37,416 bases of DNA from Lachnospiraceae bacterium (GCA_051879255.1 JBJELR010000335.1:1-37416), one strand, 5' to 3'. Shown: positions 371 through 36,584, counted from the stretch's first letter. Translations and numbers: made by a program. Notes: generated from the letters alone by a model not told the origin.

Positions 371-372
371 AC

Positions 373-1509: not shown

Positions 1510-3317
1510 TGAAGCCAAAACGCATCAATCATAAAGTTCAAAACCGTTTGCTTCCTTTGCTGGTGGTGCCGGTGATCTTTCTGGTGGCCGGCCTGTGTTT
1601 TGATTTTTACTATCAATTGAATGATGATGTGGTGATTAAGGATATTCTGTCGGGAGCTTTTTCGGGGCTTCCTGACGGACATACCAATCAGATTCTTTAT
1701 CCCCTGGGGTGGCTGATTAGTCTGGGTTACAGAATTTTACCGGGGATCCCAATCTATCCCCTGTTTTTGTTAAGCTGCTATGGAATCTGCTTCTATCTTT
1801 TGGGCTATCGGAGTGTACAATATTACCAAAGGCTTTGGGGAAAGCTGCTGTTGCTTTTGCTGGAAGCAGGAATATTCCTGTCCCTGTTTTTGTGGGAGCT
1901 GGTATACGTACAGTATTCTGTTGTCTGTGGGCTTCTTGGAGCAACAGCCTGCTTCTGGTTCTATACCACCAAGCAGGATTTGTCCCCGGGAAGCTTCTGG
2001 CTTTCCAATCTGCCTGCTCTGCTGCTTATCTGGCTGGCTTTTCTGGTGCGTTCCGAAATGCTGCTTTTGCTTACCCCTTTTATTGCAGTAATGGGGATAT
2101 ACCACTGGTCAGAGGAGGTGTCCGGCGGTAAAGAGAATAATCATTTTCCGGGAAAGGACAGGCTTTGGAAAAGGCTATTCAGTAAAGAAAACTGTTGTAA
2201 GTATATTGCCTTCGTTCTGGTGACGGCTTTGGGCTGCCTGGCCTTCTGGGGACTGGATGAGGCGGCTTACACCGGGACAGAGTGGAGGCTGTATCGGCAG
2301 TTTTTTGATGCAAGAACCAGGGTATATGACTACACCTGGTATCCCTCATACGAAGAAAATCAGGCTTTCTATGAGAGTATAGGGGTAAGCAGTGAACAAT
2401 TTAGGCTGATTGACAGCTATAATTTTGGTTTAGATGAGGAAATTGATGCGAATACTTTGGTTAGGATAGCTTCCTTTGGAGAAAAGGCAAGCCGTCAGGG
2501 CAGTCTACCCACCCGGCTGAAAAATGGAATACGGGAAATGGTGCTTCGTATGACAGACCCGGGGGAGGGACCCTATAATTATTTTGTCCTGACGGCCTAT
2601 GGTATGGTTATTGCATTGGCCATTTTACAAAAAAAGAAAAGCTATATCTGGAAATTACTGCTGCTGGCTTTGGCCCATAGTATTTCCTGGATGTATCTGC
2701 TTTTGGCTGACCGGGTGGTAGCAAGAATTGCCCATCCCCTTTATATTTTGGAATTCTTATGCCTTTTGGCTCTTTTGGTAAAAGAATTTCGTGATCGGCC
2801 GCTGTGGAATGCCGAGCTCTATTATCGTCGGGGAGCATTGGCAGTATTTTTCCTGCTGGTCATCATCAGTGGGGCAGTGGTGTTTCCCAGGGTGGCTGAG
2901 GAACAGACCAGACGGCAGAGAGTAAATGAGCCAATGGAGGCCTTTCAGGCTTATGCCGCAAAGGAGGAAGAAAGCTATTATTATTTTGATGTTTATTCCA
3001 CCGTCTATTTTACAGAAAAGCTGTTTGCCCAAAACGGGGAAAAACGTAAGAATTATGATATTTTAGGCGGCTGGTTTAACCGTAGTCCCCTGCAAAAGGG
3101 GGTGGTTTGGGAGTATGCCAAAGAGGCAGGAATAACCATCAGTCAGGCCCTGCTTACCGATAATTTTTACTTTGTGGCGGAAAGACAAGGGGATATGAGT
3201 CCGGTGCTTCTTTGGTATGAGGCTGCTGAAGCTGCTGTGGAGGTAAAAGAGGTAACAGCCTTAGGCCGGGGAGAGAATCCCCTTGTGGTATATCAATTAA
3301 GAATAAATGAGGAATAG
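1509..3317 (+). CDS. Polytopic integral membrane protein (602 aa), family not recognised. Candidate GT-C-fold extracytoplasmic glycosyltransferase.
   Basis: ORF 1509..3317. The start overlaps the wecE stop (TAATG) and has AGGAGG 5 nt upstream. There are many hydrophobic segments. An acidic motif (QLNDDVV) follows the first TM directly, and a roughly 150-aa hydrophilic C-terminal domain follows the last. Confidence 0.55.
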   Translation: MKPKRINHKVQNRLLPLLVVPVIFLVAGLCFDFYYQLNDDVVIKDILSGAFSGLPDGHTNQILYPLGWLISLGYRILPGIPIYPLFLLSCYGICFYLLGYRSVQYYQRLWGKLLLLLLEAGIFLSLFLWELVYVQYSVVCGLLGATACFWFYTTKQDLSPGSFWLSNLPALLLIWLAFLVRSEMLLLLTPFIAVMGIYHWSEEVSGGKENNHFPGKDRLWKRLFSKENCCKYIAFVLVTALGCLAFWGLDEAAYTGTEWRLYRQFFDARTRVYDYTWYPSYEENQAFYESIGVSSEQFRLIDSYNFGLDEEIDANTLVRIASFGEKASRQGSLPTRLKNGIREMVLRMTDPGEGPYNYFVLTAYGMVIALAILQKKKSYIWKLLLLALAHSISWMYLLLADRVVARIAHPLYILEFLCLLALLVKEFRDRPLWNAELYYRRGALAVFFLLVIISGAVVFPRVAEEQTRRQRVNEPMEAFQAYAAKEEESYYYFDVYSTVYFTEKLFAQNGEKRKNYDILGGWFNRSPLQKGVVWEYAKEAGITISQALLTDNFYFVAERQGDMSPVLLWYEAAEAAVEVKEVTALGRGENPLVVYQLRINEE

Positions 3318-3321
3318 GTGT

Positions 3322-3894
3322 ATGTTCATACCGGAAAGTAAACGAATAGAAGGAAATCAGATCTATCTCAGACCCATCACCAGAGAGGATACCGATAAGA
3401 TCATTCAGTGGAGAAACAGTGATACGGTGAGACCCTTTTTCATTTATCAGGAGCCTTTTACCAGAGAGGGGCACTTAAACTGGTTGGAAAAAATGATTGA
3501 ATCCCAGAAAGGCTGTCAGTTTATTATCTGCTTGAAAGAGGCTGACAGGCCTATCGGCAGTACCTATCTAAGAGATTATGATCCGGTAAGCCGAAAAGCA
3601 GAATATGGAGTATTTATTGGAGAAAAAGAGCAGAAGGGGAAGGGAATCGGTACAGAAGCACTTAAGCTGACGATGGAATTTGCCTTTGATGAGCTTAAGC
3701 TCCATAAGGTATTTGCCCGGGCCTTCAGTGACAATCAGGCCTCTATTCATTCCTTTTTAAAGGGAGGCTTCCGGCAGGAGGCCTGCCTGAGGGATGAGGT
3801 TCTGGTTGCCGGAAGATATAGGGACATTATCCTGCTGGCCAGACTGAATCCGAAGGAAGGCCATCAGGCAAAGGATGAGAAAGAAAAGGATTGA
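3322..3894 (+). CDS. GNAT-family N-acetyltransferase (RimJ/RimL-like). Candidate amino-sugar N-acetyltransferase.
   Basis: ORF 3307..3894. It shows the GNAT core with acetyl-CoA loop EKEQKGKGIGTEALK and the pattern IYLRPIT..D...I..W. The ATG at 3322 has GAGGA 8 nt upstream, whereas 3307 lacks an RBS. Confidence 0.75.
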   Translation: MFIPESKRIEGNQIYLRPITREDTDKIIQWRNSDTVRPFFIYQEPFTREGHLNWLEKMIESQKGCQFIICLKEADRPIGSTYLRDYDPVSRKAEYGVFIGEKEQKGKGIGTEALKLTMEFAFDELKLHKVFARAFSDNQASIHSFLKGGFRQEACLRDEVLVAGRYRDIILLARLNPKEGHQAKDEKEKD

Positions 3895-3902
3895 AGATAT
3901 CC

Positions 3903-4880
3903 ATGAAGAAAAAAGTAAGCTTTGTTATTCCCTGTTATCATTCTTCACTTACCTTAAGGAAGGTGGTGGAAGAAGTTCAGGAAACCATGAAAAAACTGGA
4001 GCAATATTCCTATGAAATTATTCTGGTTAATGATTGTTCACCGGATACTACATTTTCGGTGATTCAGGAACTTTGCCGGGAAAATGAAAACATCTGCGGA
4101 GTCAATCTGGCAAAAAATTTTGGTCAGCATGGAGCCCTGATGGCAGGCTTCCATCAGGTGACCGGGGATATTTTGGTGTGTCTGGATGATGATGGACAGA
4201 CACCGGCGGATGAGGCAGGAAAGCTTCTGGAGAGACTGGAAGCAGGAGATGATGTGGTGTATGCCCGCTACCCCCATAAGCAGCATTCTCTCTTTCGTAA
4301 CTTTGGCAGCTTCATCAATGAAAAGATGGCTCAGTTTTTGCTGGGAAAACCGAAGGAGCTTTACGTTTCCAGCTACTTTGCGGCAAAACGCTTCGTGGTG
4401 GACGAAATGTTGAAGTATGAAAATGCCTACCCCTATGTTATTGGTCTGGTACTGCGAACCACAAAAAAAATTTCCAATGTGGAAGTTAATCATCGGCAGC
4501 GGGAGGTAGGAGAATCAGGCTACACCCTGACCAAGCTTCTGGGACTGTGGTTTAATGGGTTTACTGCTTTTAGCACTAAGCCTCTTCGGATTGCCACAGT
4601 GACCGGATTTTTATGTGCCATGGCCGGTTTTCTCTATGCACTTTATACCATTGTTAAAAAATTTGTTAATCCGGCAGTACCGGTGGGGTTCAGTTCTTTG
4701 ATGTCGGCAATCATGTTTATTGGTGGTATGCTGATGCTGATGCTGGGATTAATCGGTGAATATATTGGAAGAATGTACATTTGCATCAACAATGCCCCTC
4801 AGTTTGTCGTGCGGGAGCTGATTCCTGTTAAAGAAAAGAAGGAAGATGCAGAAGGCAAAAGGGAAACGACGGAAAAATAG
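3903..4880 (+). CDS. GT2 polyprenyl-phosphate glycosyltransferase of the GtrB/ArnC/CsbB type, with a C-terminal membrane anchor
   Basis: ORF 3891..4880 (TTG at 3891, ATG at 3903). GT-A motifs are VSFVIPCYHSS, VNDCSPD and CLDDDGQ (DxD). Two C-terminal TM helices (LRIATVTGFLCAMAGFLYALY and LMSAIMFIGGMLMLMLGLIGEYIGR) are typical of the GtrB/ArnC architecture. Confidence 0.8.
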   Translation: MKKKVSFVIPCYHSSLTLRKVVEEVQETMKKLEQYSYEIILVNDCSPDTTFSVIQELCRENENICGVNLAKNFGQHGALMAGFHQVTGDILVCLDDDGQTPADEAGKLLERLEAGDDVVYARYPHKQHSLFRNFGSFINEKMAQFLLGKPKELYVSSYFAAKRFVVDEMLKYENAYPYVIGLVLRTTKKISNVEVNHRQREVGESGYTLTKLLGLWFNGFTAFSTKPLRIATVTGFLCAMAGFLYALYTIVKKFVNPAVPVGFSSLMSAIMFIGGMLMLMLGLIGEYIGRMYICINNAPQFVVRELIPVKEKKEDAEGKRETTEK

Positions 4881-4903
4881 CAGGAAGGGCAAGCAGGATT
4901 TAT

Positions 4904-4961
4904 TTATTTATTTGAGCAATAGAACAGGCAAGGCCTGTTCTAAGCATGGGGATTAAAATGG
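4904..4961 (+). repeat. Copy 1 of a conserved 58-nt intergenic module: T-rich tract, TTGAGCA, perfect hairpin, RBS, ATG
   Basis: Direct comparison gives 53/58 identity to 27821-27878. The perfect palindrome TAGAACAGGC-AAG-GCCTGTTCTA lies at 4920-4942. GGGGA follows, then ATG at 4958. Confidence 0.9.
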
Positions 4962-6802
4962 ATAAGAAAAGAAGGGAAAAGTGGAAGAAAATAGAGCAGA
5001 ATGCGGTGGTCAGAGGCTGCTTTGGCATTCTGGCTTCTATGTCTATGTTTTCCTCATTAAGTACCACAGTAACAGAAGGCAGGGAGGCTGTAGTCTACTC
5101 GAATAGCTTTTTTTCGTTTTTTTTCGCCCTCCTTTGTGCAGTCTGCTTTTTGTTAGTGAAAAAGAAGACCCCAGAGGGGGATAGGAGGGGCTTTTGGGTA
5201 AGTCTGCTTTACAGCCTGGGAATTTCAGCCTGCCTGGTGGTGGGAAAGCAGTTGGAAACGGTGGAAAATATAAAAATAACAGATGTTGTTATTTGGATAA
5301 ACATATTGATATTGACCCTCTTTTTTCAGCCCTTTGTCCAATTTACCTGGAAATGGCTGGAAGAATCAGGGAAGGAAGGGAGTGCAGAAAAAGTAGGGAA
5401 ACAGGGCTGCTTTTTGGGTCAAAAGCTTTTCTGGAAAAATCTCTGTCTCTTACTGATTTGTTGGCTGCCGGTCTTTCTGGCCCTTTATCCGGGGGCCTTC
5501 GTTTATGATGCTGCCGATGAGTATGTGCAGGTAGCCACCAGAAGCTTTACCACTCATCACCCTCTCATTCATGTCCTGCTTTTGGGTGGTTTTGTGGCAG
5601 GAGGGAATAAATTCTTTGGCTCCTTTAATCTGGGAATTGCTGCCTATACCCTGTTTCAGATGCTAATCCTGGCGGCAGTATTCAGCTATACCATTCTCTG
5701 GCTAAAGAGAAGAATAAACCGTAAGTGGGTGGAATGGGCAGCACTTTTATTCTATGGGTTTTTCCCCGTAATTCCTATGTATGCAGTCTGCTCTGCAAAA
5801 GATGGTTTGTTTACCGGCGCAGTTCTTGTGGTAGTGCTTCAGATGCTGTCTCTTTTTGAAGAACCGGAAAGCTTTCTGGCAAAAAAGAGCAACTGGATTG
5901 CAAGTATTCTTGCAGCCGCCATTATGATGCTGCTAAGAAATAACGGATGTTATGCGTATTTCGTGTGGATTCCCCTGGCTATTTTGGGACTATCGGGAAG
6001 GAAAAAAAAGCTGTGTCTGCAAACTGCAGCTCTACTGCTTGGTTCGGCAGCAGTGTTTATGCTGATTTCAAAGGGCCTGGCCTGGGGGCTTGAAGCGGAT
6101 GACAGCGGCAGCCAGGAAATGATGACGGTACCGATTCAACAACTGGTACGAACCTATAACTATAGCCCGGAAAGCTACACAGAAGAAGAACAGGCGTTAC
6201 TTTTTGAGCTTATTCCGGAGAAGGAGATGGGAGCCTACAACCCAAGGATTTCCGACATAGTTAAAAGTAAATTTAATAATGAAAGCTTCAATGCGAATAA
6301 AGGAGAGTACCTGAAGCTTTGGGCTAAAATCGGCCTGCGTAAGCCCATGAGCTATATTAATGCCTGGCTGATGACCTCTTATGGCTTCTGGTATCCGGAT
6401 GCAGTAATCAATATTTATGGAGGAAATACGGTCTATAGCTTTACCTATGAAGACAGTTCCTATTTTGGCTTTGAAACAGAATATCCGGGAACCAGAGAAA
6501 GTAAGTTTCCCTGGCTGGAGGAGCAGTACAGGAGGCTGTCATTGGAGCTTTATCAGCAAAGACTTCCGGGGCTGTCCATGCTTTTTTCTCCCGGCTTTTT
6601 GTTCTGGGTATTCGCTTTTTGTCTATGCTTTCTGCTTTGGAAAAAGCAGGTAAAAAAGCTGGTTCCCCTGCTGCTGATTTTTCTGGTATGGATGACGTTT
6701 CTGCTGGGGCCTACTTATCTGGTGCGCTATGTGCTGATTCTCTGGTTTGCCCTGCCTGTAATTGTAAGTGAGATAAAAGTATGCTATACTGATTTGATAT
6801 GA
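4958..6802 (+). CDS. Large polytopic membrane protein (about 614 aa). Candidate GT-C-fold glycosyltransferase, possibly a DUF6020-like family.
   Basis: ORF 4946..6802. ATG 4958 is preferred because it occupies the same position as the start in repeat copy 2, with GGGGA 6 nt upstream. There are more than 10 hydrophobic segments. An acidic loop motif (YDAADEY) follows a TM, and a roughly 190-aa hydrophilic loop precedes the last TMs. Confidence 0.55.
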   Translation: MDKKRREKWKKIEQNAVVRGCFGILASMSMFSSLSTTVTEGREAVVYSNSFFSFFFALLCAVCFLLVKKKTPEGDRRGFWVSLLYSLGISACLVVGKQLETVENIKITDVVIWINILILTLFFQPFVQFTWKWLEESGKEGSAEKVGKQGCFLGQKLFWKNLCLLLICWLPVFLALYPGAFVYDAADEYVQVATRSFTTHHPLIHVLLLGGFVAGGNKFFGSFNLGIAAYTLFQMLILAAVFSYTILWLKRRINRKWVEWAALLFYGFFPVIPMYAVCSAKDGLFTGAVLVVVLQMLSLFEEPESFLAKKSNWIASILAAAIMMLLRNNGCYAYFVWIPLAILGLSGRKKKLCLQTAALLLGSAAVFMLISKGLAWGLEADDSGSQEMMTVPIQQLVRTYNYSPESYTEEEQALLFELIPEKEMGAYNPRISDIVKSKFNNESFNANKGEYLKLWAKIGLRKPMSYINAWLMTSYGFWYPDAVINIYGGNTVYSFTYEDSSYFGFETEYPGTRESKFPWLEEQYRRLSLELYQQRLPGLSMLFSPGFLFWVFAFCLCFLLWKKQVKKLVPLLLIFLVWMTFLLGPTYLVRYVLILWFALPVIVSEIKVCYTDLI

Positions 6803-6881
6803 TAAGATGAGGCGGTAATAAAAGCCGAATCATGCATCAATGTGGACAGGCAGGATAAGGATTAAGAAACGGGAAGAATCG

Positions 6882-9362
6882 ATGAATCAACGAATTAAAT
6901 TAAGCCGAGGAATTCAATATGTAATGGCAGCAGCGGCAGTCATACTGTTTTTGCTGTTCTGGCCCTTTGGGATAATTGAGAGCAGGTATACCGCTAAAAG
7001 TGATGAGGTGATTTTACAAAAATCGGACCCCATCAGTGTAGAGAATAATGGAACCCAGATGTTTATTGCCCAGGGGAGTAACCTGAAGGCGGTGGATCTT
7101 TATGTTGCCAATGATATGCGGGCAGAAACCATCACCTTTCGGCTTTACGACAGTGCCTATCAGCAGCTTTGGGAAACCTTTTATGTGGTAGATGCAGATA
7201 CAACATTCCCCGGATTTATCCGTATTCCTATTGAGATGGAAACGGTAGAGGGTTGGGAATATTATTATACCGTAGAGGGGCTTACCAGCGATTTGGAGCT
7301 GTATTACGAGGATACGGTCAGGTCAACCTCCTTTGCCAACGGAACCTATCTTTATGGAGGGGCAGAGATGTCGGGCATTAATCTGATTGCCCGCTATCGC
7401 TATACCACTCCCTTTTCCTGGTGGATGATTGTGATTTTCGGTCTGCTTCTGGGGACAGCAGCAATAACCCTGTGGAAGCTGACGGATAGGCTTTTTGCAG
7501 CAAAATGGGCAGATAAAAATAAGGAAATTACCGTACAGAAGCTTTTGCAATGGACCCTGGGGCCGCTTATCCTTCTGGCAATGCTGGCCGCTTTGCTGAC
7601 CGTTTTTCCGGGGCGGACTTTTGGCAGAGGCAAAGTGAACTATGGATTTTACTACCTGGGGATTATGCTTACGGCAGGAGTGCTGTTGTATGGAGTAAGT
7701 CATAAACGATTGGGGCAGGAGCCTTTAATCAACTTAAATAAGATAAAAAGCAGCTGGCCCAATTGGGCCATGTCTGTCTGCTTTGCAGGAGCGTTATGGT
7801 CCTGCTATGAATATATGAATGGGCTTTATGATATCCATCACAGTTATGCTACCTGCAGGCTGCTGGTCTGGTTTGCCCTGGCCACGATTTTCACCTTCAG
7901 GTTCAACAGGCAGGAGCTTTTTAAGGTATACAACCTGATTTATCTGGCAGCAGCCGGTGTAGGAGGCTATTTTTATGCAAAACCCTACCGGGGAGTGGAG
8001 GAGCTGGAGGAGCTTTACCGTCTGCAGGCCTATGTTCTGGTGGTCTGTGGATTTGCCCTGCTGCAGATGCTCATTGCCCTGGTGAAGACGATGGGGAAAA
8101 AAAGGCAGGCTGCAGCTTACTGGTATCTTCCTTATACAGGTGCGTTGGCTTTGTTTCTTGGGATGCTGGTCATTTTCCGCAATACCCGTACCTGGCCTGT
8201 TTTACTGGCAGTGGTTTTCGGCCTTTTTTATCTGCGGATGTGGATGTGGGAAAAGCGGGACAGCCTGCCGGAAATTTTTTGTAATGGAATCATCTTAAAC
8301 TTTCTCTATACGGTAGTCTACTGCCTTATGCATCGCCCTTATCTGCGGTTCAGACACAACCGTTACGGAATGACCTATCATACCGTTACCATGACCGGTT
8401 ATTATCTGGCTCTGGTGCTCTGTGCCATCATGGTGCGCCTGTTTGTGCAGTATAGGAAAAATGGGCGATGGCAGGATGCCTGGAAGGAATTGTGCCTTTT
8501 GGGAACGGGAAATGTATATCTGTTTTTAACTCTGTCCAGAACAGGCTATCTGGCAGCCTTTGTAATGGAAATGTTTATGATCATTTTTCTCTCTGCGCTG
8601 TGGGAAAGAAAGAAGCTAAAGGCTGTCTTTAAGGCGATAGGGCTTACCTTAGGGGTTAGTATACTGTTTTTTCCCATTGTGTTTACGGCTCAGAGAATTG
8701 TGCCCACTCTTTTCAATGACCCCATTTATTCGGAAATTGAGGTGTGGGAATATACGACACAAGAAAACACCCCCAGAGATTCAGAGCTTTATATTGATTT
8801 GGAAGCCTTTGTAAAAATCATGAAAAACAAGCTGTTTGGGATGAAAATGGAAAATATTTCCTTAAGCAGCATAAGAGATAAGCTGCAGCCGGTGTATTTA
8901 CAGTCCCAGGGAAGGCTTTTGGCCAGTGTTTCTCCCACAGAGGGGGAGGAAAGGGATTTTTCCAATGGCCGGATGGAGATTTTTCGGGAATACATTGGTC
9001 AGTGGAACATGACGGGACACGATGAGATGGGATTTCCCTTTCCCGATGGAAGTATCTCTACTCATGCCCATAATACCTATTTACAGGTAGCCCATGACCA
9101 TGGGGTAATTACAGGAGTTATTTTCCTGCTTTTTGGTATTTACACCTTCCTTCTTGCGGTTTACCGCTATGTCAGGGAAAGAGAAAAGCAGCCTTATCTG
9201 ACCTTGATTATTGCCGTCACCATAGCCTTTGGAGCAGCGGGAATGGTGGAGTGGATTTTTCATCCTTGTAATCCCTTTGGCTTTTCCCTAATGGTGGTGA
9301 TTGCCCCTCTGCTGTTTAAACCGGGCAGACCACAGGTCATAAATGGAGGAAAACATGAATAA
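6882..9362 (+). CDS. O-antigen ligase/polymerase-like (Wzy_C domain) membrane protein with an N-terminal extracytoplasmic domain (about 826 aa)
   Basis: ORF 6840..9362. ATG 6882 (MNQRIKLSRG..., then TM1) is preferred. A Wzy_C-type signature sits near the C-terminus: GRMEIFREYI...STHAHNTYLQVAHDHGVITGVIFLLFG. A domain of about 170 aa without TM segments lies between TM1 and TM2. Confidence 0.7.
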   Translation: MNQRIKLSRGIQYVMAAAAVILFLLFWPFGIIESRYTAKSDEVILQKSDPISVENNGTQMFIAQGSNLKAVDLYVANDMRAETITFRLYDSAYQQLWETFYVVDADTTFPGFIRIPIEMETVEGWEYYYTVEGLTSDLELYYEDTVRSTSFANGTYLYGGAEMSGINLIARYRYTTPFSWWMIVIFGLLLGTAAITLWKLTDRLFAAKWADKNKEITVQKLLQWTLGPLILLAMLAALLTVFPGRTFGRGKVNYGFYYLGIMLTAGVLLYGVSHKRLGQEPLINLNKIKSSWPNWAMSVCFAGALWSCYEYMNGLYDIHHSYATCRLLVWFALATIFTFRFNRQELFKVYNLIYLAAAGVGGYFYAKPYRGVEELEELYRLQAYVLVVCGFALLQMLIALVKTMGKKRQAAAYWYLPYTGALALFLGMLVIFRNTRTWPVLLAVVFGLFYLRMWMWEKRDSLPEIFCNGIILNFLYTVVYCLMHRPYLRFRHNRYGMTYHTVTMTGYYLALVLCAIMVRLFVQYRKNGRWQDAWKELCLLGTGNVYLFLTLSRTGYLAAFVMEMFMIIFLSALWERKKLKAVFKAIGLTLGVSILFFPIVFTAQRIVPTLFNDPIYSEIEVWEYTTQENTPRDSELYIDLEAFVKIMKNKLFGMKMENISLSSIRDKLQPVYLQSQGRLLASVSPTEGEERDFSNGRMEIFREYIGQWNMTGHDEMGFPFPDGSISTHAHNTYLQVAHDHGVITGVIFLLFGIYTFLLAVYRYVREREKQPYLTLIIAVTIAFGAAGMVEWIFHPCNPFGFSLMVVIAPLLFKPGRPQVINGGKHE

Positions 9363-11229
9363 GAATACCTTTAATCGTCAGCTTTTTTCCCGCAGAGCAG
9401 GGCTGATGCTTTATGATGTAGCCAGTGTACTGGCAGCCAGCTTTCTGGCTATTTCCATGCGTTATGAATTTAACTATGACATGATTCCCTCCTACTTTTT
9501 GGAGACTATTGCCCGCTTTCTGCCCTTTAATGTTGTGATTACACTGGCTGTTTTCTATGTTTTTCGCCTCTATCACAGTTTATGGGCATTTGCGGGAGAA
9601 AATGAGTTACAGAATGTGGTGGTGGCCAGCTTTCTTGCTTCTGCAGTTAACGGATTAGGATTATTTGCAGTAAGGGTACAGCCCAAGGCAGTACCCAGCA
9701 GCTACTATTTTATGTATACCTTTTTGCTGATTACCTTTACCTTTATCAGCCGATTTTCCTATCGCTTTCTGCGCAACAAAAAGCACAAAATACAAAATAA
9801 GAAAAACACCACAAGGGTAATGATTATTGGTGCCGGTGAAGCCGGAAATGCTATTATCAAGGAAATCGTCAGCAGTAACTATTCCACCATGACCATAGGC
9901 TGCATCATCGATGACGATGCGAAAAAATGGGGAAACTTTATCCAGGGCATCCGGGTGGCAGGAGGCCGGGATAAAATTTTGGAATGCGTGGATTTGTATA
10001 GCATAGATGAAATTTTTATTGCCATTCCCTCTGCCTCCAGAAAAGCCATTCGGGAAATTCTGGAAATCTGTAAGGAGACAGAATGTAAGCTGAAAGCCCT
10101 TCCGGGAATCTACCAGTTGGTTAATGGGGAAGTCAATGTAAGTCAGTTAAGAGATGTGGAGGTAGAGGACCTTCTGGGCAGAGACCCCATCAAGGTGGAC
10201 TTAAACTCTATTTTGCAGTATGTCAGCCAAAAAACGGTACTGGTAACCGGGGGAGGAGGCTCCATTGGCAGTGAGCTGTGTCGCCAGATTGCCCAGCACA
10301 AGCCCAAAAAGCTGATTCTGGTGGATATCTATGAAAACAGCGCATATGATGTACAGCAGGAATTACAGTATAAACACCCGGAACTGGATTTGGTGGTGTT
10401 AATTGCTTCTGTGCGCAATACCAATCGAATGAACTCTATTTTTGAAACCTACAGGCCGGATATCGTCTACCATGCGGCAGCCCATAAGCATGTGCCGCTA
10501 ATGGAAGCCAGTCCCAATGAAGCAGTCAAAAATAACGTGTTCGGCACCTGGAAAACGGCCCAGGCAGCGGCCTATTACGGAACCGGAAAGTTTGTGATGA
10601 TCAGTACCGACAAGGCCGTTAATCCTACCAATATCATGGGAGCCAGCAAACGGATTTGTGAAATGATTATTCAGACCTTTAATCGCCATTATGATACAGA
10701 ATTTGTGGCAGTACGTTTCGGTAATGTGCTTGGCAGCAACGGCAGTGTTATTCCTCTGTTTAAAAAGCAGATTCAGCAGGGAGGGCCGGTAACGGTAACG
10801 CATCCCGATATTATTCGTTACTTTATGACCATACCGGAGGCGGTTTCTTTGGTGCTTCAGGCGGGAGCCTATGCCAGAGGCGGAGAGATTTTCGTTTTGG
10901 ATATGGGTGAGCCGGTGAAGATTCTGGATTTGGCCAAAAATTTGATTCGTCTGTCCGGCTATAAGGTGGGCGAAGATATTCAGATTGAGTTTACCGGTCT
11001 TCGTCCCGGGGAAAAATTATATGAGGAGCTTCTAATGGACGAGGAGGGTCTGCAGGATACGGATAATAAAATGATCCATATCGGAAAGCCCATAGAACTG
11101 GATGAGATGGCCTTTTTTGCCCAACTGAAACGGCTGAAGGAGGAGTCCAAAAACGAGAGTAAAGACATTCGTCAACTGATTAAAGAAATTGTGCCTACCT
11201 ATCAGATACGGGAGGAACAGGAAGCATAG
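9355..11229 (+). CDS. Membrane-anchored nucleotide-sugar 4,6-dehydratase of the CapD/PglF/WbpM/EpsC family, probably acting on UDP-GlcNAc
   Basis: ORF 9343..11229. ATG 9355 has GGAGGA 4 nt upstream. It has four N-terminal TM segments and two Rossmann motifs (VMIIGAGEAGNAI and VLVTGGGGSIGSEL). The family block ISTDKAVNPTNIMGASKR is present. Confidence 0.85.
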   Translation: MNKNTFNRQLFSRRAGLMLYDVASVLAASFLAISMRYEFNYDMIPSYFLETIARFLPFNVVITLAVFYVFRLYHSLWAFAGENELQNVVVASFLASAVNGLGLFAVRVQPKAVPSSYYFMYTFLLITFTFISRFSYRFLRNKKHKIQNKKNTTRVMIIGAGEAGNAIIKEIVSSNYSTMTIGCIIDDDAKKWGNFIQGIRVAGGRDKILECVDLYSIDEIFIAIPSASRKAIREILEICKETECKLKALPGIYQLVNGEVNVSQLRDVEVEDLLGRDPIKVDLNSILQYVSQKTVLVTGGGGSIGSELCRQIAQHKPKKLILVDIYENSAYDVQQELQYKHPELDLVVLIASVRNTNRMNSIFETYRPDIVYHAAAHKHVPLMEASPNEAVKNNVFGTWKTAQAAAYYGTGKFVMISTDKAVNPTNIMGASKRICEMIIQTFNRHYDTEFVAVRFGNVLGSNGSVIPLFKKQIQQGGPVTVTHPDIIRYFMTIPEAVSLVLQAGAYARGGEIFVLDMGEPVKILDLAKNLIRLSGYKVGEDIQIEFTGLRPGEKLYEELLMDEEGLQDTDNKMIHIGKPIELDEMAFFAQLKRLKEESKNESKDIRQLIKEIVPTYQIREEQEA

Positions 11230-11293
11230 TTAAAGAGTATCGCAGACCAGGCTTGCGGTATAGATAGAGAGTAGATTCAGAATGAGGATTATT

Positions 11294-12427
11294 ATGGAAA
11301 AAAAACGGATTTATCTTTCTTCTCCCACCATCCATGGGGAGGAACAGCAATTTGTACAGGAGGCCTTTGATACCAATTGGGTAGCCCCCTTAGGCCCTAA
11401 CGTGAATCATCTGGAGGAAGAAATGTGTGCTTATACCGGGGCAGGGGCTGCCGCCGCCTTAAGCGCAGGTACGGCTGCTATCCATTTAAGTCTTAAGCTG
11501 CTTGATTTACAGCCCCAGGATGTGGTGTTTGTGTCGGATTTAACCTTTTCTGCCACCTGTAACCCAATCTGCTATGAAAAGGCCTCCCCTGTGTTTATTG
11601 ACAGTGAGCGGGACACCTGGAATATGTGTCCCAAGGCATTGGAGAAGGCCTTCAGCCTTTATCCCAACCCCAAGGCGGTAATTTGTGTGCATCTTTATGG
11701 TACGCCGGCTAAGCTGGAGGAAATTCAGGCCATCTGCAGCGCCCATCAGGTTCCCTTGATTGAGGATGCGGCAGAATCCTTAAGTGCCCTCTATCTGGGA
11801 AAACAGACCGGTACCTTTGGAAAATTTGGAATCTATTCCTTTAACGGAAATAAAATCATTACCAGCTCCGGCGGAGGTATGCTGGTATCCGAGGATGAGG
11901 AGGCCATTGAAAGAGCCAGATTTTTGTCCACCCAGGCCAGAGACCAGGCCAGACATTATCAGCACTCCAGGATTGGGTATAATTACCGGATGTCCAATAT
12001 TGTGGCCGGAATCGCAAGGGGGCAGCTTATCCATCTGGAGGAGCATAAAGCACTGAAAAAGAAAATCTATGAGCAGTACAAAAAGGCCTTTTCGGATATT
12101 TCGGAAATTGCCATGAATCCCATGAATCCTAAGGGGGAGGCCAATAACTGGCTGTCCTGTCTGACCATTGAAGAAGGTTCAAGGGTAACGCCCAATCAGA
12201 TCATGGATGCTTTAGAGGCAGAAAATATGGAATCCAGACCCATATGGAAGCCTATGCATCTGCAGCCGGTATTTGAGAAATATGACTTTGTTTCTCTGGA
12301 GCCTAGAGATAAGGCCATCGGAGAGGATATTTTTAACCGGGGACTTTGTCTGCCCAGCGATATTAAGAATACGGCGGAAGATATGGAGAGAATTATCGGC
12401 ATCGTCAGAGCCTGCTTTGGAAAGTAG
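11294..12427 (+). CDS. DegT-family PLP aminotransferase, PglE/EpsN/WcfR type (UDP-4-keto-6-deoxy-HexNAc C4 transaminase)
   Basis: ORF 11282..12427. The MEKKRIYLSSP start resembles EpsN-type N-termini. Motifs seen are NWVAPLGP and GTAAIHL, plus the PLP-lysine block YSFNGNKIITSSGGGMLVS. Confidence 0.8.
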   Translation: MEKKRIYLSSPTIHGEEQQFVQEAFDTNWVAPLGPNVNHLEEEMCAYTGAGAAAALSAGTAAIHLSLKLLDLQPQDVVFVSDLTFSATCNPICYEKASPVFIDSERDTWNMCPKALEKAFSLYPNPKAVICVHLYGTPAKLEEIQAICSAHQVPLIEDAAESLSALYLGKQTGTFGKFGIYSFNGNKIITSSGGGMLVSEDEEAIERARFLSTQARDQARHYQHSRIGYNYRMSNIVAGIARGQLIHLEEHKALKKKIYEQYKKAFSDISEIAMNPMNPKGEANNWLSCLTIEEGSRVTPNQIMDALEAENMESRPIWKPMHLQPVFEKYDFVSLEPRDKAIGEDIFNRGLCLPSDIKNTAEDMERIIGIVRACFGK

Positions 12428-12464
12428 GAAAGGCGGAATAACCGGCTTTGAAATGGAGGTAAAG

Positions 12465-13085
12465 ATGTATAAAAACGGGATTAAACGGGGATTGGATATT
12501 CTATTGTCGGGTCTGGCTCTTATTCTTCTTTCGCCCCTGCTTTTGGTGGTAGCCATTCTGGTAAGAGTAAAGCTGGGAAGTCCCGTTATTTTTCATCAAA
12601 AGAGGCCGGGAAAGGATGAGAAGATTTTTACCCTCTGCAAATTCCGTACCATGACGGATGATCAGGACGAGGAAGGGAATCTTTTGCCGGACAGTGTAAG
12701 ACTGACCCGGTTCGGAAAGCTGCTTCGATCCACCAGTCTGGATGAGCTGCCGGAGCTGTGGAATATCTTTAAAGGGGATATGAGTATTATCGGCCCCAGA
12801 CCCTTACTGGTTTCTTATCTTCCCTATTATACCAAGGAAGAACAAAAACGGCACAGTGTCCGTCCGGGGCTTACAGGTCTGGCTCAGGTAAACGGAAGAA
12901 GTGCATTAAACTGGGAAGAACGTTTTGCCTATGATTTGGAATACGTGGAAAAATGCAGCCTGTCCATGGATGCGCAGATTTTCTTTAAAACCATTGGCAA
13001 GGTATTTACCCGTTCCGGGACCCTTGAGGGAGAGGCACAGCCCCTGCCGGATTTTGATGATTACCGCAAAAGCCAAAGAGCCTGA
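12465..13085 (+). CDS. Small monotopic phosphoglycosyltransferase (bacterial sugar transferase, PglC/EpsL/WcfS type). This is the initiating enzyme.
   Basis: It lies inside ORF 12273..13085. ATG 12465 has GGAGG 5 nt upstream. An N-terminal re-entrant helix (LDILLSGLALILLSPLLLVVAILV) is followed by the motifs KFRTM, LDELPELWNIFKGDMSIIGPRP and PGLTGLAQVNGR. Confidence 0.88.
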   Translation: MYKNGIKRGLDILLSGLALILLSPLLLVVAILVRVKLGSPVIFHQKRPGKDEKIFTLCKFRTMTDDQDEEGNLLPDSVRLTRFGKLLRSTSLDELPELWNIFKGDMSIIGPRPLLVSYLPYYTKEEQKRHSVRPGLTGLAQVNGRSALNWEERFAYDLEYVEKCSLSMDAQIFFKTIGKVFTRSGTLEGEAQPLPDFDDYRKSQRA

Positions 13086-13138
13086 TGCTCATCCATAAAG
13101 AAATCCGTTTTCAGTAAAGCGAAAGGTAGATGATAGGA

Positions 13139-14122
13139 ATGAATATTTTAATCTTGAGTGCAGGTACAAGGAATAAGATTATCCAGTATTTTAAAAAAGA
13201 GTGTGAGCCGGGAGATCGGGTGATTGCTACGGATTGCAGCAATCTGGCTCCGGCCCTTTATGAAGCGGATGCCTTTTATCTCGTTCCCAGGATTACCCAC
13301 CCGGATTATTTGGATAAAATTCTGGAGATTTGTAAGGCGGAAAAGATTACCGGGGTTTTGTCCCTGATCGATCCTGAACTTTCTCTTTTGGCAAAGCACC
13401 AAAAGGCTTTTGTAGCTGTGGGAACTACTGTCATCGGTTCTGACTACGAATTGGTGGAAACCTGCTTTAACAAATATCGTATGTATAAAAAGCTGAAGGA
13501 GCTGGGTATTCCTACGGGAAGGTGCTACCTGGATAAAGCACTGTTTTATGCCGAAAGAAAGGCGGGAAAAATCGATTATCCGATATTTGTCAAGCCGGTC
13601 TGCGGCAGTGCCAGCCTGCAGATTAACAAGGTCAGCAGCGATGAAGAACTGGAGGTTCTTTTTGATTTGCATGATGATCTGATGATTCAGGAATATATGG
13701 ATGGGACAGAATACGGTGCAGACGTTTATATTGATATGCTTTCGGGAAAGACCAGTGCCATTTTTTTGAAGAAAAAAATAAAAATGAGAGCCGGTGAAAC
13801 GGATAAGTCTGTGTCCGTTAAGGATGAGAGGCTGTTTGCCTTAATCTGCAAATTTGTAGAGGAATGCGGTTTCAGAGGAATTATTGATATTGACATTTTT
13901 AATATCAAGGGAGAATACTATATTTCGGAAGTAAACCCACGATTTGGCGGAGGGTATCCTCATGCTTATGAGAGTGGAGTAAATGTTCCCCGGTTGATTA
14001 TGCAAAACCTGAGAGGAAAGACTACGCCCCCTGCCATTGGAGCTTATGAGGAAGGAATCTGCATGATGAAATACAATGAGGTGCTGATTCGCAGGATTTT
14101 GGAAAAGGATATTGTTGAATGA
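13139..14122 (+). CDS. ATP-grasp domain ligase (carboxylate-amine ligase type), substrate unknown
   Basis: ORF 13130..14122. The layout is typical of ATP-grasp enzymes from polysaccharide loci: NILILSAGTRN, VIATD, PIFVKP, IQEYMDGTEYGADVY and EVNPRFGGGYP. Confidence 0.7.
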   Translation: MNILILSAGTRNKIIQYFKKECEPGDRVIATDCSNLAPALYEADAFYLVPRITHPDYLDKILEICKAEKITGVLSLIDPELSLLAKHQKAFVAVGTTVIGSDYELVETCFNKYRMYKKLKELGIPTGRCYLDKALFYAERKAGKIDYPIFVKPVCGSASLQINKVSSDEELEVLFDLHDDLMIQEYMDGTEYGADVYIDMLSGKTSAIFLKKKIKMRAGETDKSVSVKDERLFALICKFVEECGFRGIIDIDIFNIKGEYYISEVNPRFGGGYPHAYESGVNVPRLIMQNLRGKTTPPAIGAYEEGICMMKYNEVLIRRILEKDIVE

Positions 14123-15207
14123 AGAAGATTCTGATTCTGGCCAATTCCTCAGAAGGCTTATATGACTTTCGATGGGAGTTGGTAGAGGAATTATTAAAGG
14201 AATATCAGGTGTATATCAGTGTGCCGGATCAGATTACGGCTAAAAAGCTTACCGGGGCCGGCTGTCAGGTAATACACACCAAAATGAACAGAAGGGGGAT
14301 GAATCCTGTTCAGGATATGGGGCTTCTTCTGGCTTATGGAAGGTTGATGAGAAAAATTCAGCCGGACTGTATTCTTACCTATACCATCAAGCCCAATATT
14401 TACGGAGGTCTTATGGCCGGTTTAAACCATATTCCCTATATTCCCACCATTACCGGCCTGGGAACGGCCTTCCGGAATACGGGGATGGTGAATCGGCTGG
14501 TAAAGCTTTTGTACCGTATGGCCTTTAGGAGGGCACAGGTGGTATTTTTTCAAAACAAAAGAAACCAAAGGGTGTTTGAGGAGAGCCATCTGCTTACCGG
14601 AAGGGTAAGGGTGGTTGCCGGCTCGGGAGTAAATCTGAACAGTCACCCCGCTGAACCCTATCCGGGAAGAGACAAGCCTCGGTTTTTATTTGTAGGCAGA
14701 CTGATGAAAGAAAAGGGAATCGAAGAATTTCTGAAAACAGCGAAAATGTATGCAAACCAGGCAGAATTTGTTATAATAGGTGATTATGAAGAGGATTACC
14801 GCAGTCAGGTAGAGGCAGCAGTGAGAGAAGATGGCCTTAATTACTGCGGTCCCCAGCGGGATGTACATTCCTTTTACCGGGATGCAGATGGAATAATCGT
14901 AGCCTCCTACCATGAGGGAATGTCCAATGTGGTTTTAGAGGCCTGCGCTACTGCCAGGCCGGTACTGGCTACCAACATCCATGGCTGCCTTGAGGCAGTA
15001 GAGGATAAGGTTACAGGCCTTCTTTTTTCTCCGGGGAGTACACAGGCTCTTAAGGAGGCGGTGGAAGCCTTTCTCCATCTGCCTATAGAGCGCAGGGAGG
15101 CCATGGGCAAGGCAGCCAGACTCAAAATGGAAAGAGAATTTGATCGATGCCAGGTGGCAGCCGCCTATCTGGAAGAAATAAAGCAGGCTGTGGATACAGC
15201 AGAATGA
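14119..15207 (+). CDS. GT4 (GT-B fold) glycosyltransferase
   Basis: ORF 14119..15207. The start overlaps the upstream stop (ATGA). The EX7E-type block is HEGMSNVVLEACATARPVLAT. Confidence 0.8.
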   Translation: MKKILILANSSEGLYDFRWELVEELLKEYQVYISVPDQITAKKLTGAGCQVIHTKMNRRGMNPVQDMGLLLAYGRLMRKIQPDCILTYTIKPNIYGGLMAGLNHIPYIPTITGLGTAFRNTGMVNRLVKLLYRMAFRRAQVVFFQNKRNQRVFEESHLLTGRVRVVAGSGVNLNSHPAEPYPGRDKPRFLFVGRLMKEKGIEEFLKTAKMYANQAEFVIIGDYEEDYRSQVEAAVREDGLNYCGPQRDVHSFYRDADGIIVASYHEGMSNVVLEACATARPVLATNIHGCLEAVEDKVTGLLFSPGSTQALKEAVEAFLHLPIERREAMGKAARLKMEREFDRCQVAAAYLEEIKQAVDTAE

Positions 15208-15216
15208 GAGGTTCTT

Positions 15217-16533
15217 ATGAGTTTATACGATAGGATAGTTAAGGGAGAGGAAAAAATATCCCTGGTGGGCCTGGGCTATGTAGGAATGCCTATAGCAGTG
15301 GCCTTTGCCCGCAAGGTCAAGGTAATCGGTTTTGACCTGAACCAGGAGAAGATTAAGCTGTATCAGTCCGGTATTGATCCCACCAGAGAAGTGGGAGATG
15401 AGGCCATTAAGGAAACTCAGGTGGAGTTTACAGCGGACCCCACAAGGCTTAAGGAGGCCAAATTCCATATTGTGGCGGTACCTACTCCGGTAAATGATGA
15501 CCATACTCCTGACCTGACCCCGGTGGAAGGAGCCAGCAGACTGTTGGGGCAGAATCTGACCAAGGGCTCTATCGTGGTCTTTGAATCTACGGTATATCCG
15601 GGAGTGACAGAGGAAATCTGCGTACCCATTCTGGAAAAGGAATCCGGTCTGACCTGCGGGGTAGATTTCAAAATCGGCTATTCTCCTGAGAGAATCAATC
15701 CGGGAGATAAGGTACACAGATTAGAAACGATTACGAAAATTGTGTCCGGTATGGATGAGGAAACCCTGGATGAGGTGGCTCTGGTCTATGAGCTGGTGGT
15801 AGAGGCCGGGGTTCATCGGGCAGAATCCATTAAGGTGGCAGAGGCCGCCAAGGTGATTGAAAACAGCCAGAGGGATATTAATATTGCCTTTATGAATGAG
15901 TTGTCCATTATTTTCAATAAAATGGGAATCGATACGAAAGCGGTGCTGGAGGCAGCAGGAACAAAGTGGAATTTTCTTCCCTTTTCTCCGGGACTGGTGG
16001 GCGGACATTGTATCGGTGTGGATCCCTATTACCTGACCTATAAGGCAGAACAGTTAGGGTATCACTCTCAGATCATCCTGTCGGGACGTCGGATTAATGA
16101 TGATATGGGAAAATACGTGGCAGAAAGCGTAGTGAAGAACCTGATTAAGGCAGGCCTTCCCGTAAATGGGGCAAGGGTGGCTATTTTAGGCTTCACCTTC
16201 AAGGAAAACTGTCCTGACACCCGAAATACCAAGGTAATCGATATTTATCGGGAGCTGGGTGAATATGGGATCACACCCATGGTGGTAGACCCGGTTGCCG
16301 ATGCTAATGAGGCTAAAAGTCTGTATGGAATTACCTTTGAAGACCTAGAGGAGGTTAAAGACATGGATGCCATCATCATTGCAGTGGCTCATGATGTTTT
16401 TATGCGAATCGATCAGGAACAGATGGCCGGCTTTTTTGCTTCCACAAATAAAGTCAGAGTACTGGCAGATATCAAGGGGATTTATAACCGTAAGATGTAT
16501 AGTAACGAAAACTATCTTTATTGGAGGTTATAG
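15217..16533 (+). CDS. UDP-N-acetylhexosamine 6-dehydrogenase (TviB/WbpO/WbpA family nucleotide-sugar dehydrogenase)
   Basis: ORF 15217..16533. The NAD motif is VGLGYVGMPIAVAF and the catalytic-Cys block is GLVGGHCIGVDPYYL. The overall layout matches TviB-like enzymes. Confidence 0.8.
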   Translation: MSLYDRIVKGEEKISLVGLGYVGMPIAVAFARKVKVIGFDLNQEKIKLYQSGIDPTREVGDEAIKETQVEFTADPTRLKEAKFHIVAVPTPVNDDHTPDLTPVEGASRLLGQNLTKGSIVVFESTVYPGVTEEICVPILEKESGLTCGVDFKIGYSPERINPGDKVHRLETITKIVSGMDEETLDEVALVYELVVEAGVHRAESIKVAEAAKVIENSQRDINIAFMNELSIIFNKMGIDTKAVLEAAGTKWNFLPFSPGLVGGHCIGVDPYYLTYKAEQLGYHSQIILSGRRINDDMGKYVAESVVKNLIKAGLPVNGARVAILGFTFKENCPDTRNTKVIDIYRELGEYGITPMVVDPVADANEAKSLYGITFEDLEEVKDMDAIIIAVAHDVFMRIDQEQMAGFFASTNKVRVLADIKGIYNRKMYSNENYLYWRL

Positions 16534-16535
16534 AA

Positions 16536-17516
16536 ATGGGATTTAAGGAATTGGTTTTTCCCCATAACAGTGTTTTTTTGGTTACAGGAGGAGCCGGCTT
16601 TATCGGCTCTAACCTCTGTGAGGCGATTACCGATATGGGCTATGTGGTACGGTGTTTGGACAACCTTTCCACAGGCAAAAAGGAGAATGTTGACCGCCTT
16701 AAGGACAGAGAAGCTTATACCTTTATGGAAGGGGATATTCGGGATTTAGATACCTGTATGAAGGCCTGTGAGGGGGTAGACTTTTGTCTGCACCAGGCGG
16801 CCTGGGGAAGTGTTCCCAGAAGTATAGAGATGCCGCTTTTTTATGAGGAGGTAAATATCCGGGGAACCCTGAATATGATGGAGGCTGCCAGACAGCAGGG
16901 GATAAAGAAATTCGTCTATGCCTCCAGCTCCTCCGTATACGGGGATCATCCGGTACTTCCCAAGGTGGAGGGGCAGGAAGGAAATTTACTTTCTCCTTAT
17001 GCACTGACGAAGCGGGTAGACGAGGAATACGGTAAGCTGTATAAGAAGCTGTACGGACTGGATACCTATGGTATGCGATACTTCAACGTGTTTGGAAGAC
17101 ATCAGGATCCGGATGGGGCGTATGCGGCAGTTATTCCTAAGTTTATTAAGCTTTTACTGAATGACCAGGTGCCTACCATCAATGGGGATGGAAAACAGAG
17201 CCGGGATTTTACCTATATTGACAACGTAATTGAGGCCAATTTAAAGGCCTGCCTGGCTCCTTCTGAAGCCGCAGGAGAAGCCTTCAATATTGCCTATGGA
17301 GGCAGAGAGTACCTGATTGATATTTATGATGGCCTGTGCAAAGCTCTGGGAAAGAATATTCAGCCAAACTTTGGACCGGATCGGGCCGGGGATATTAAGC
17401 ATTCCAATGCGGATATCAGCAAGGCAAGGAAGTTTCTGGGCTATGCACCGGAATACGATTTTGAAACAGGAATCAAACTGGCTATTGACTGGTATAAAGA
17501 AAATCTGGGTAAATAG
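16536..17516 (+). CDS. SDR-family UDP-GlcNAc(A) C4-epimerase, TviC/WbpP-like
   Basis: ORF 16521..17516. ATG 16536 has GGAGG 8 nt upstream. Motifs are VTGGAGFIGSNL, AAWGSVPRS, SPYALTK (YxxxK), RYFNVFGRHQDPDGAYAAVIP and INGDGKQSRDFTYIDNV. Confidence 0.8.
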   Translation: MGFKELVFPHNSVFLVTGGAGFIGSNLCEAITDMGYVVRCLDNLSTGKKENVDRLKDREAYTFMEGDIRDLDTCMKACEGVDFCLHQAAWGSVPRSIEMPLFYEEVNIRGTLNMMEAARQQGIKKFVYASSSSVYGDHPVLPKVEGQEGNLLSPYALTKRVDEEYGKLYKKLYGLDTYGMRYFNVFGRHQDPDGAYAAVIPKFIKLLLNDQVPTINGDGKQSRDFTYIDNVIEANLKACLAPSEAAGEAFNIAYGGREYLIDIYDGLCKALGKNIQPNFGPDRAGDIKHSNADISKARKFLGYAPEYDFETGIKLAIDWYKENLGK

Positions 17517-22829: not shown

Positions 22830-22869
22830 ACAGGCAAAGAAGCTGTTTGGAAGGATTATGGAGGTTAAT

Positions 22870-36547: not shown

Positions 36548-36584
36548 GGAACGTTCAAGTATTCGCAAAAAAGGGGAGTAGGAA

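Follow-up and report, generated by a model that had tools for sequence, protein, structure and literature searches.

What does a carboxylate-amine ligase do in a sugar-priming pathway, in the slot beside the transferase where an acetyltransferase is usually encoded? This question is raised by a 37.4-kb stretch of DNA from a Lachnospiraceae bacterium (GCA_051879255.1, JBJELR010000335.1:1-37416; the window, meaning the whole stretch that was analysed), a glycan locus of about 30 genes, all on one strand, with a GC content of about 0.45, whose nearest relatives are uncultured Lachnospiraceae (77-95% protein identity over the block discussed here in locus L001). Within it, genes for a PglF-type dehydratase, a PglE-type aminotransferase, a small PglC-type phosphoglycosyl transferase (PGT) and an ATP-grasp ligase follow one another. 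An initial annotation had reported these four genes and the lack of a PglD/EpsM-type acetyltransferase, and had offered two readings, one in which the 4-amine of the priming sugar stays free and one in which the ligase acylates this amine or amidates a uronate. All four genes were found, co-directional on the + strand at 9343-14122, and the ligase probably attaches an acyl group other than acetyl to the 4-amine, either of the UDP-4-amino sugar or of the sugar in lipid-linked form. Within what is a large surface-glycan locus of the Lachnospiraceae, the genes at 9343-15207 probably make up the priming module.

Fusions of the ligase to priming enzymes

The strongest single result is a PGT::ATP-grasp fusion in a locus (L171) that is syntenic with the window gene for gene, in the order unknown protein, GNAT::GT2, DUF6020, Wzy_C, PglF, DegT, PGT::ATP-grasp, GT4 glycosyltransferase, TviB, membrane protein and TviC. 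Here, PGT and ligase form one 538-aa protein (P0442), whose N-terminal half is 64% identical to the window PGT and whose C-terminal half is 67% identical to the window ligase. Single PGT::ATP-grasp proteins of this kind, 526-545 aa long, occur in at least nine distinct clusters (P0159, P0335, P0441-P0444, P0446, P0456, P0477 and P0489). The ligase is also fused to DegT aminotransferases (P0322, P0460), to PglD-like (P0264, P0313, P0342), GNAT (P0328, P0454) and FemAB-like domains (P0326, P0344), and to a GT4 of the same type as that of the window (P0352); a decarboxylase resembling ornithine/diaminopimelate (Orn/DAP) decarboxylases is joined to it in P0271, and tandem ATP-grasp proteins exist among the relatives. 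Fusion to a UDP-sugar dehydrogenase was found in none of the 18 long relatives that were domain-scanned, out of 150 best representatives.

These fusions bear on the proposal that the 4-amine stays free, as in a polysaccharide A (PSA)-like zwitterion built on 2-acetamido-4-amino-2,4,6-trideoxygalactose (AATGal), with the ligase acting away from the priming sugar on a peptide or metabolite, or on a protein or wall acceptor. Such an arrangement would agree with a module that has no acetyltransferase, with the pyruvyl-transferase fragment and uronate genes of the window, and with the occurrence of paralogues of about 50% identity in non-glycan contexts. It is nevertheless improbable, as an orthologue is covalently joined to the PGT in a syntenic locus, others are joined to sugar aminotransferases, and PGT adjacency is universal in the clade. 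The zwitterion put forward in the initial annotation gained no positive support, and it is tempered further by the two AsnB-type amidotransferases of the window, which suggest that part of the N-acetylgalactosaminuronic acid (GalNAcA) is amidated and some uronates thereby neutralised.

Conserved linkage across relatives

Linkage was counted in 80 Lachnospiraceae species genomes, with the loci holding enough sequence as denominators (Table 1), and the block order Wzy_C-like protein, PglF, PglE, PGT, ligase, GT4, TviB, TviC is nearly invariant. The four-gene arrangement is far beyond chance, as it recurs in 79/79 related loci with upstream sequence. Gaps of 52, 25 and 53 nt separate the PglF-type, PglE-type, PGT and ATP-grasp genes in the window, and the ligase stop and GT4 start overlap by 4 nt. 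A scan of 6.5-18 kb for promoters and terminators returned counts at or below shuffle expectation, a null result that fits a single transcription unit, the scan itself being uninformative.

Table 1. Genes of the proposed priming module and the two genes that follow it, with their linkage to the ligase gene in Lachnospiraceae loci.
Feature	Coordinates	Strand	Basis and remarks	Lachnospiraceae loci
PglF/CapD-type membrane-anchored UDP-GlcNAc 4,6-dehydratase, 628 aa	9343..11229	+	Pfam Polysacc_synt_2, PDB 5bju; alternative start 9355	upstream of ligase, 64/68
PglE-type PLP-dependent sugar C4 aminotransferase, 381 aa	11282..12427	+	Pfam DegT_DnrJ_EryC1, PDB 1o61/4ztc	present, 65/68
Small monotopic PGT, PglC type, 210 aa	12453..13085	+	Pfam Bac_transf, PDB 8e37/8g1n	directly 5' of ligase, 79/79
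ATP-grasp carboxylate-amine ligase, proposed N-acylase of the priming-sugar 4-amine, 327 aa	13139..14122	+	Pfam PylC-like_N + ATP-grasp_3, NF009406	
GT4 glycosyltransferase (Glyco_trans_4_2 N-domain)	14119..15207	+	Pfam; translationally coupled to ligase	next after ligase, 78/78
TviB-like UDP-GlcNAc 6-dehydrogenase	15217-16533	+	NCBIfam TviB 494 bits, under 592 cut-off	downstream, 70/70
TviC-like 4-epimerase	16521-17516	+	NCBIfam TviC 295 bits, under 760 cut-off	downstream, 69/70

The same counts raise a second alternative, that the ligase amidates the carboxyl of GalNAcA, on the nucleotide sugar or in the chain, with an amino acid or amine, and that the priming amine is free or acetylated elsewhere. 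In the Lachnospiraceae the ligase always precedes GT4, TviB and TviC (70/70 and 69/70 for the latter two), decarboxylases and pyridoxal phosphate (PLP) enzymes that neighbour it in relatives could provide amines, and Campylobacter capsule synthesis is known to involve ATP-grasp ligases that amidate uronates. As linkage is equal on both sides, the window and the Lachnospiraceae clade alone cannot separate an amino-sugar role from a uronate role.

The wider family is more telling in this respect. Of 87 further loci from metagenomes, 62 have enough sequence, and 41 of these hold a PGT at most 2.5 kb upstream of the ligase, a group that includes essentially all of those whose ligase is at least 55% identical to that of the window. 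A uronate dehydrogenase accompanies only the closest ligase clade (at least 66% identity), and below that level, where the PGT link persists, it is present in 3/27 loci with full flanks. No uronate dehydrogenase was found within 8-10 kb of the ligase in L085, L087 (PglF-PGT-ligase-decarboxylase-CapK-DegT) or L113, nor within 10 kb in Clostridium sediminicola, which has the order Wzz-PGT-ligase-DegT-GT4. A Priestia plasmid carries aminotransferase-PGT-ligase, and two Bacteroidales loci have PGT-[decarboxylase]-ligase::PglD inside an elaborate N-acyl amino-sugar cluster. Four E. coli plasmids (4/5,426 genomes) hold the ligase in a dTDP-sugar cluster, rmlB-rfbA-flippase-DegT-GNAT-PALP-ligase-GT2 with an epimerase gene before rmlB; in the plasmid examined (NZ_LR890610.1; L173, 15689-34666), which is of IncR type, this cluster is flanked by insertion sequences, and a DNA search found no chromosomal E. 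coli counterpart of the GNAT-PALP-ligase trio, O-antigen clusters included, so that the trio was tied to no serotype with a known glycan structure.

In L085, L087, L113 and the E. coli plasmid, where the ligase is found with DegT or PGT and without a nearby uronate dehydrogenase, the sugar amine is the only evident sugar-borne partner. These loci argue against amidation of GalNAcA, as do the fusions described above, which join the ligase to PGT, DegT and acetyltransferases and, among those found, never to a dehydrogenase, and the two AsnB-type amidotransferases, which would already cover uronamide formation in the window. Family-wide co-occurrence with a UDP-sugar 6-dehydrogenase, as expected of a uronate amidoligase, was not observed. 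We regard this alternative as decidedly unlikely, and the suggestion of the initial annotation that a uronate is amidated is weakened by the confinement of the TviB/TviC link to the closest clade. Taken together, the PGT linkage and fusions, the DegT fusions and the dehydrogenase-free loci place the ligase functionally with the aminotransferase and the PGT, and favour the other reading in that annotation, acylation of the 4-amine.

A further gene of this neighbourhood encodes PALP, a PLP enzyme of about 328 aa resembling D-cysteine desulfhydrase, 1-aminocyclopropane-1-carboxylate (ACC) deaminase and CuyA, which lies between PGT and ligase, in some loci together with a small GNAT. The gene is present in 21/80 Lachnospiraceae loci (e.g. 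L006:6951-7925) and in many metagenome loci (L107, L109, L133, L137), and absent from the window. As a marker of ligase specificity PALP was rejected, its distribution being patchy across the ligase tree.

A Pgl-type triad without PglD

The three enzymes encoded upstream of the ligase have been compared with solved structures and with the motifs of their families. The dehydratase carries Polysacc_synt_2 (5.5e-124) and an N-terminal CoA_binding_3 region in Pfam, and among solved structures it comes closest to C. jejuni PglF/WlaL (5bju, E=1.5e-93). Its STDKAV..NIMGASK aligns with STDKAV..NIMGCTK of PglF, with Met at the Tyr position of other short-chain dehydrogenases/reductases; the Thr-Asp-Lys motif and the Met-for-Tyr residue are reported to be catalytic in PglF. 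The gene stands as annotated at first except for its start, as the Met at 9355 is the second, four codons inside the 9343 start. The aminotransferase (DegT_DnrJ_EryC1, 1.4e-91) is closest to C. jejuni PglE (1o61/4ztc, E=2e-83), keeps the PLP lysine motif YS(F/Y)NGNKIIT, and scores 363 bits against the NCBIfam LegC family, under the cut-off of 420. The PGT (Bac_transf, 2.7e-63) is closest to Campylobacter PglC (8e37/8g1n, an N,N'-diacetylbacillosaminyl-1-phosphate transferase; E=1e-66) and keeps the SLDELP motif, which holds the Asp-Glu dyad, and the GPRP motif; it was called from 12453, the mechanical open reading frame (ORF) of 12273-13085 beginning at a TTG within the preceding gene.

Since the best solved-structure matches are all Campylobacter pgl enzymes and the catalytic motifs are kept, a Pgl-type route is well supported, in which the triad is predicted to produce UDP-2-acetamido-4-amino-2,4,6-trideoxyhexose and to transfer it to undecaprenyl phosphate, the route that the initial annotation had taken as established for such a triad. 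The similarity to PglE favours gluco (bacillosamine) over galacto (AAT) configuration at C4, stereochemistry as such not being readable from sequence.

The enzyme that would complete a conventional set is missing. A Pfam scan of the + strand ORFs of the window detected neither a Hexapep nor a PglD_N domain, and tblastn gave no match (E<=1e-2) to PglD or a hexapeptide acetyltransferase, either in the window or among 80 related loci of 17 kb (L001-L080). The six queries were two stand-alone homologues of PglD, three PglD-like domains taken from fusions, and a further hexapeptide protein. The reported absence of a PglD/EpsM-type enzyme was therefore borne out for this neighbourhood, and the ligase does adjoin the PGT with no PglD beside it; the notion that it simply takes the place of the acetyltransferase is an oversimplification, as many relatives have the ligase fused to or beside PglD-like or GNAT acetyltransferases, which points to an extra acylation step and not a mere swap. 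The GNAT gene at 3307-3894 (given as 3322-3894 when it was first suggested to serve the priming pathway) was considered as the missing N4-acetyltransferase and down-weighted, its orthologue being fused to the adjacent GT2 in L171 and its neighbour encoding a WecE-type transaminase. More probably, this GNAT acetylates the amino sugar of the WecE/GT2 module described below.

An intact member of a family of thousands

The ligase gene, which the initial annotation had rightly placed next to the PGT, is intact. Its product matches PylC-like_N (5.6e-40) and ATP-grasp_3 (8e-15) in Pfam and reaches 490 bits against NCBIfam NF009406 (PRK12767.1-5; cut-off 271), where the name "carbamoyl phosphate synthase-like protein" is a placeholder without function. 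It also matches PDB 2pn1 from Exiguobacterium (E=7e-92), a structural-genomics entry that carries no function. An alternative ATG exists at 13130, and homologues of 327 aa favour the start at 13139. The positions conserved family-wide (K112, K152, Q184-E185, D252, E264, N266 and R268), which match the nucleotide and Mg ligands of ATP-grasp enzymes in general, are all intact, so that the protein should be an active carboxylate-amine (or thiol) ligase.

An AlphaFold (AF2) model of the ligase has a mean confidence (pLDDT) of 95, and its sole close fold match is 2pn1, with a template modelling (TM) score of 0.88-0.94. Other matches are to generic ATP-grasp folds, namely biotin carboxylases, PylC, L-amino-acid ligases and PurT, and the fold search gave no substrate clue. 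All 8,000 ligase candidates that were scored have E<=1e-10; the best 120 matches are ATP-grasp proteins of 324-465 aa, 68-98% identical to the window ligase, and nearly all of the named ones come from Lachnospiraceae metagenome-assembled genomes. Clustered at 50%, the family comprises 7,577 clusters at E<1e-3 and 519 at E<1e-30.

Proposed pathway and acyl donor

In the pathway that we propose, the PglF-type dehydratase would convert UDP-GlcNAc to a UDP-4-keto-6-deoxy sugar, from which the PglE-type transaminase would form UDP-2-acetamido-4-amino-2,4,6-trideoxyhexose. The ATP-grasp ligase, and not a PglD-type acetyl-CoA transferase, would then activate a free carboxylic acid as acyl-phosphate and join it to the 4-amine, giving a bacillosamine-type sugar with a non-acetyl N4-acyl group. 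The PglC-type PGT would move this sugar onto undecaprenyl phosphate, and the coupled GT4 would extend it, probably with GalNAcA from TviB and TviC. Of this scheme, the identities of the genes, their intact catalytic motifs and the conserved linkage and fusions are observed, whereas we infer the amine substrate, the acyl donor and the point at which acylation occurs, on the nucleotide sugar or on the lipid-linked one.

The timing or partner could differ. The PGT might transfer the sugar with its amine still free, leaving the ligase to acylate it once linked to undecaprenyl diphosphate (Und-PP), or the ligase might extend, by a second residue, an acyl or aminoacyl group that another enzyme has installed. 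Fusion with a monotopic membrane PGT would place the ligase at the membrane, as the former requires, and the tandem ATP-grasp proteins and FemAB-like fusions of relatives suggest side chains of several residues. In the window, however, there is a single ligase, the module contains no further gene for acylation, and the PGT is most like PglC, which prefers the N4-acylated UDP-sugar; such a change of order or of acceptor is unlikely.

As to the donor, an amino acid or amino-acid-derived acid, tailored or N-acetylated in some lineages, is suggested by the PALP, decarboxylase, GNAT, PglD-like and FemAB-like partners that neighbour the ligase or are fused to it in relatives. No such accessory gene stands beside the window ligase, so that its donor is likely a common metabolite. 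More tentatively, and with the odds against it, the whole ATP-grasp family could consist of tRNA-independent sugar-aminoacyl ligases, which would load the 4-amine of bacillosamine-type priming sugars with side chains of amino-acid type or resembling short peptides, these side chains then being diversified by lineage-specific PLP enzymes, decarboxylases, GNAT or PglD acetyltransferases and FemAB-like domains.

Several observations weigh against N-acylation of the priming sugar. No family member has a function assigned by biochemistry or by a ligand-bound structure, 2pn1 being an orphan in this regard. Paralogues about 50% identical to the ligase (L088-L099, e.g. L098:680-8972) stand in a cdaA-cdaR-glmM-LeuA-like-Orn/DAP-decarboxylase-like-ligase context without PGT or DegT, which suggests that they may have a different, small-molecule role, and this non-glycan setting means that the chemistry of the family is not confined to sugars. 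In the Lachnospiraceae, the ligase is linked as tightly to GT4-TviB-TviC as to the PGT. The proximity of the PGT to PglC, which is specific for N,N'-diacetylbacillosamine (diNAcBac), is also compatible with an ordinary diNAcBac product, and, as the search for an acetyltransferase covered the window and related loci, a gene for one could lie outside the 37 kb. The frequent fusion of ligase to acetyltransferase may mean that the ligase targets another amine than that of PglD.

Other genes of the locus

The GT4 that follows the ligase probably carries out the second transfer, onto the primed lipid. The TviB and TviC homologues are context genes whose similarity supports a supply of UDP-GalNAcA, in agreement with the GalNAcA named in the initial annotation. 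In 45/80 loci, a multi-pass membrane protein of 419-478 aa with no Pfam match is encoded between TviB and TviC (e.g. L008:11437-12858); it is absent from the window, where the two genes overlap by 13 nt. Between ligase and GT4, three loci (L025:9100-9646, L026 and L070) have a pair of genes for proteins of 93 and 90 aa, which look antitoxin/toxin-like as read without a domain search.

On the 5' side of the module, an 840-aa multi-pass protein with a weak Wzy_C (O-antigen ligase-like) domain is encoded at 6840-9362 (+), overlapping the PglF start by 20 nt, and a gene of this kind is kept 5' of PglF in related loci. The protein may act as a ligase or as an O-oligosaccharyltransferase (O-OTase), in which case the locus would be a protein- or wall-glycosylation system. 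Further upstream, at 361-6802 (+), lies a side module that encodes a WecE-type dTDP-4-amino-4,6-dideoxyhexose transaminase (644 bits, NCBIfam), a 602-aa unknown protein, a GNAT, a GT2 and a DUF6020 protein; in the syntenic L171 (module L171:902-4212), GNAT and GT2 are a single 501-aa protein. This module may serve the lipid-carrier-based addition of an N-acetylated 4-amino-6-deoxyhexose.

Among the GT4 genes near TviB and TviC are those of the two AsnB-type glutamine amidotransferases mentioned above (19816-21705 and 22858-24783, +), a pair that probably forms uronamides (GalNAcAN-type residues). They are followed by a gene for a 625-aa fusion of GT2 and GT11, the latter a fucosyltransferase family (24777-26654, +), and by one for a half-size ABC exporter (ABC_membrane + ABC_tran; 30608-32356, +), which may act on the lipid-linked glycan as a flippase of the PglK/MsbA kind. 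A partial ORF at the 3' end (36582-37416, +), absent from the ORF listing owing to its truncation, matches polysaccharide pyruvyl transferase (PF04230, E=8e-15) and runs past the end of the window, which gives a footing to the pyruvate ketal envisaged in the initial annotation.

Implications

Bacillosamine-type sugars prime many bacterial glycoconjugates, and the enzymes that make them are under study as drug and vaccine targets. A function for the ligase, if assigned, would name a family of thousands and give 2pn1 a function. If the proposed acylation is correct, the first sugar of a conserved Lachnospiraceae surface glycan carries an unusual N-acyl, possibly aminoacyl, group, a point of relevance to how the host immune system recognises abundant gut commensals. 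Should the family indeed be sugar-aminoacyl ligases, they would decorate a surface glycan or glycoprotein system that is possibly Wzy_C/O-OTase-dependent, and aminoacyl side chains together with uronates and pyruvate could yield charged or zwitterionic motifs in these dominant gut commensals.

Comparison with known systems

The AATGal systems of B. fragilis PSA and pneumococcal type 1 (WcfR/WcfS type, free 4-amine) resemble the window in their dehydratase, aminotransferase and small PGT, in having no dedicated acetyltransferase, and in the presence of pyruvyl-transferase and uronate genes. These systems are not known to have an ATP-grasp ligase coupled to the PGT, whereas the window-type ligase is universally PGT-adjacent in its clade and sometimes covalently joined; if it acylates as proposed, the window departs from PSA-type loci in having an N-acylating enzyme. 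PurT, which joins formate to the amine of glycinamide ribonucleotide (GAR), and the L-amino-acid ligases share the fold of the window ligase (TM score of about 0.6-0.75) and likewise act on an amine by way of an acyl-phosphate, but with only 13-21% identity and unrelated substrates. In Exiguobacterium, the source of 2pn1, the homologue has no PGT beside it, and a Wzy/Wzz/PglF locus is about 3 kb away.

Closer parallels are found among Pgl systems. In the C. jejuni pgl pathway, PglF, PglE and PglD produce UDP-diNAcBac and PglC yields Und-PP-diNAcBac; the window is alike in dehydratase, aminotransferase and PGT, and in the GT4 that comes next, as PglA does. It differs in that there is no PglD-type acetyltransferase and an ATP-grasp ligase occupies the slot beside the PGT, in that the host is a Gram-positive gut anaerobe, and in that about 20 more glycan genes follow. 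Neisseria PglB2 is reported to be a bifunctional protein of PGT and ATP-grasp domains, implicated in the pilin glycan that contains glyceramido-acetamido-trideoxyhexose (GATDH). By this description, PglB2 would follow a like logic, with an ATP-grasp domain in place of the acetyltransferase as the partner of a PGT in a 2,4-diamino-2,4,6-trideoxyhexose pathway. The accessory genes of the window's relatives, in contrast, hint at amino-acid-type acids and not at glycerate, and the coupling seen in PglB2 takes the form in the window of separate genes 53 nt apart, as opposed to the fused genes of L171 (P0442) and at least eight other clusters. The locus is best described as encoding a putative PGT-coupled ATP-grasp N-acylation step in Pgl-type priming, stand-alone here, fused in relatives, and widespread in gut Lachnospiraceae.

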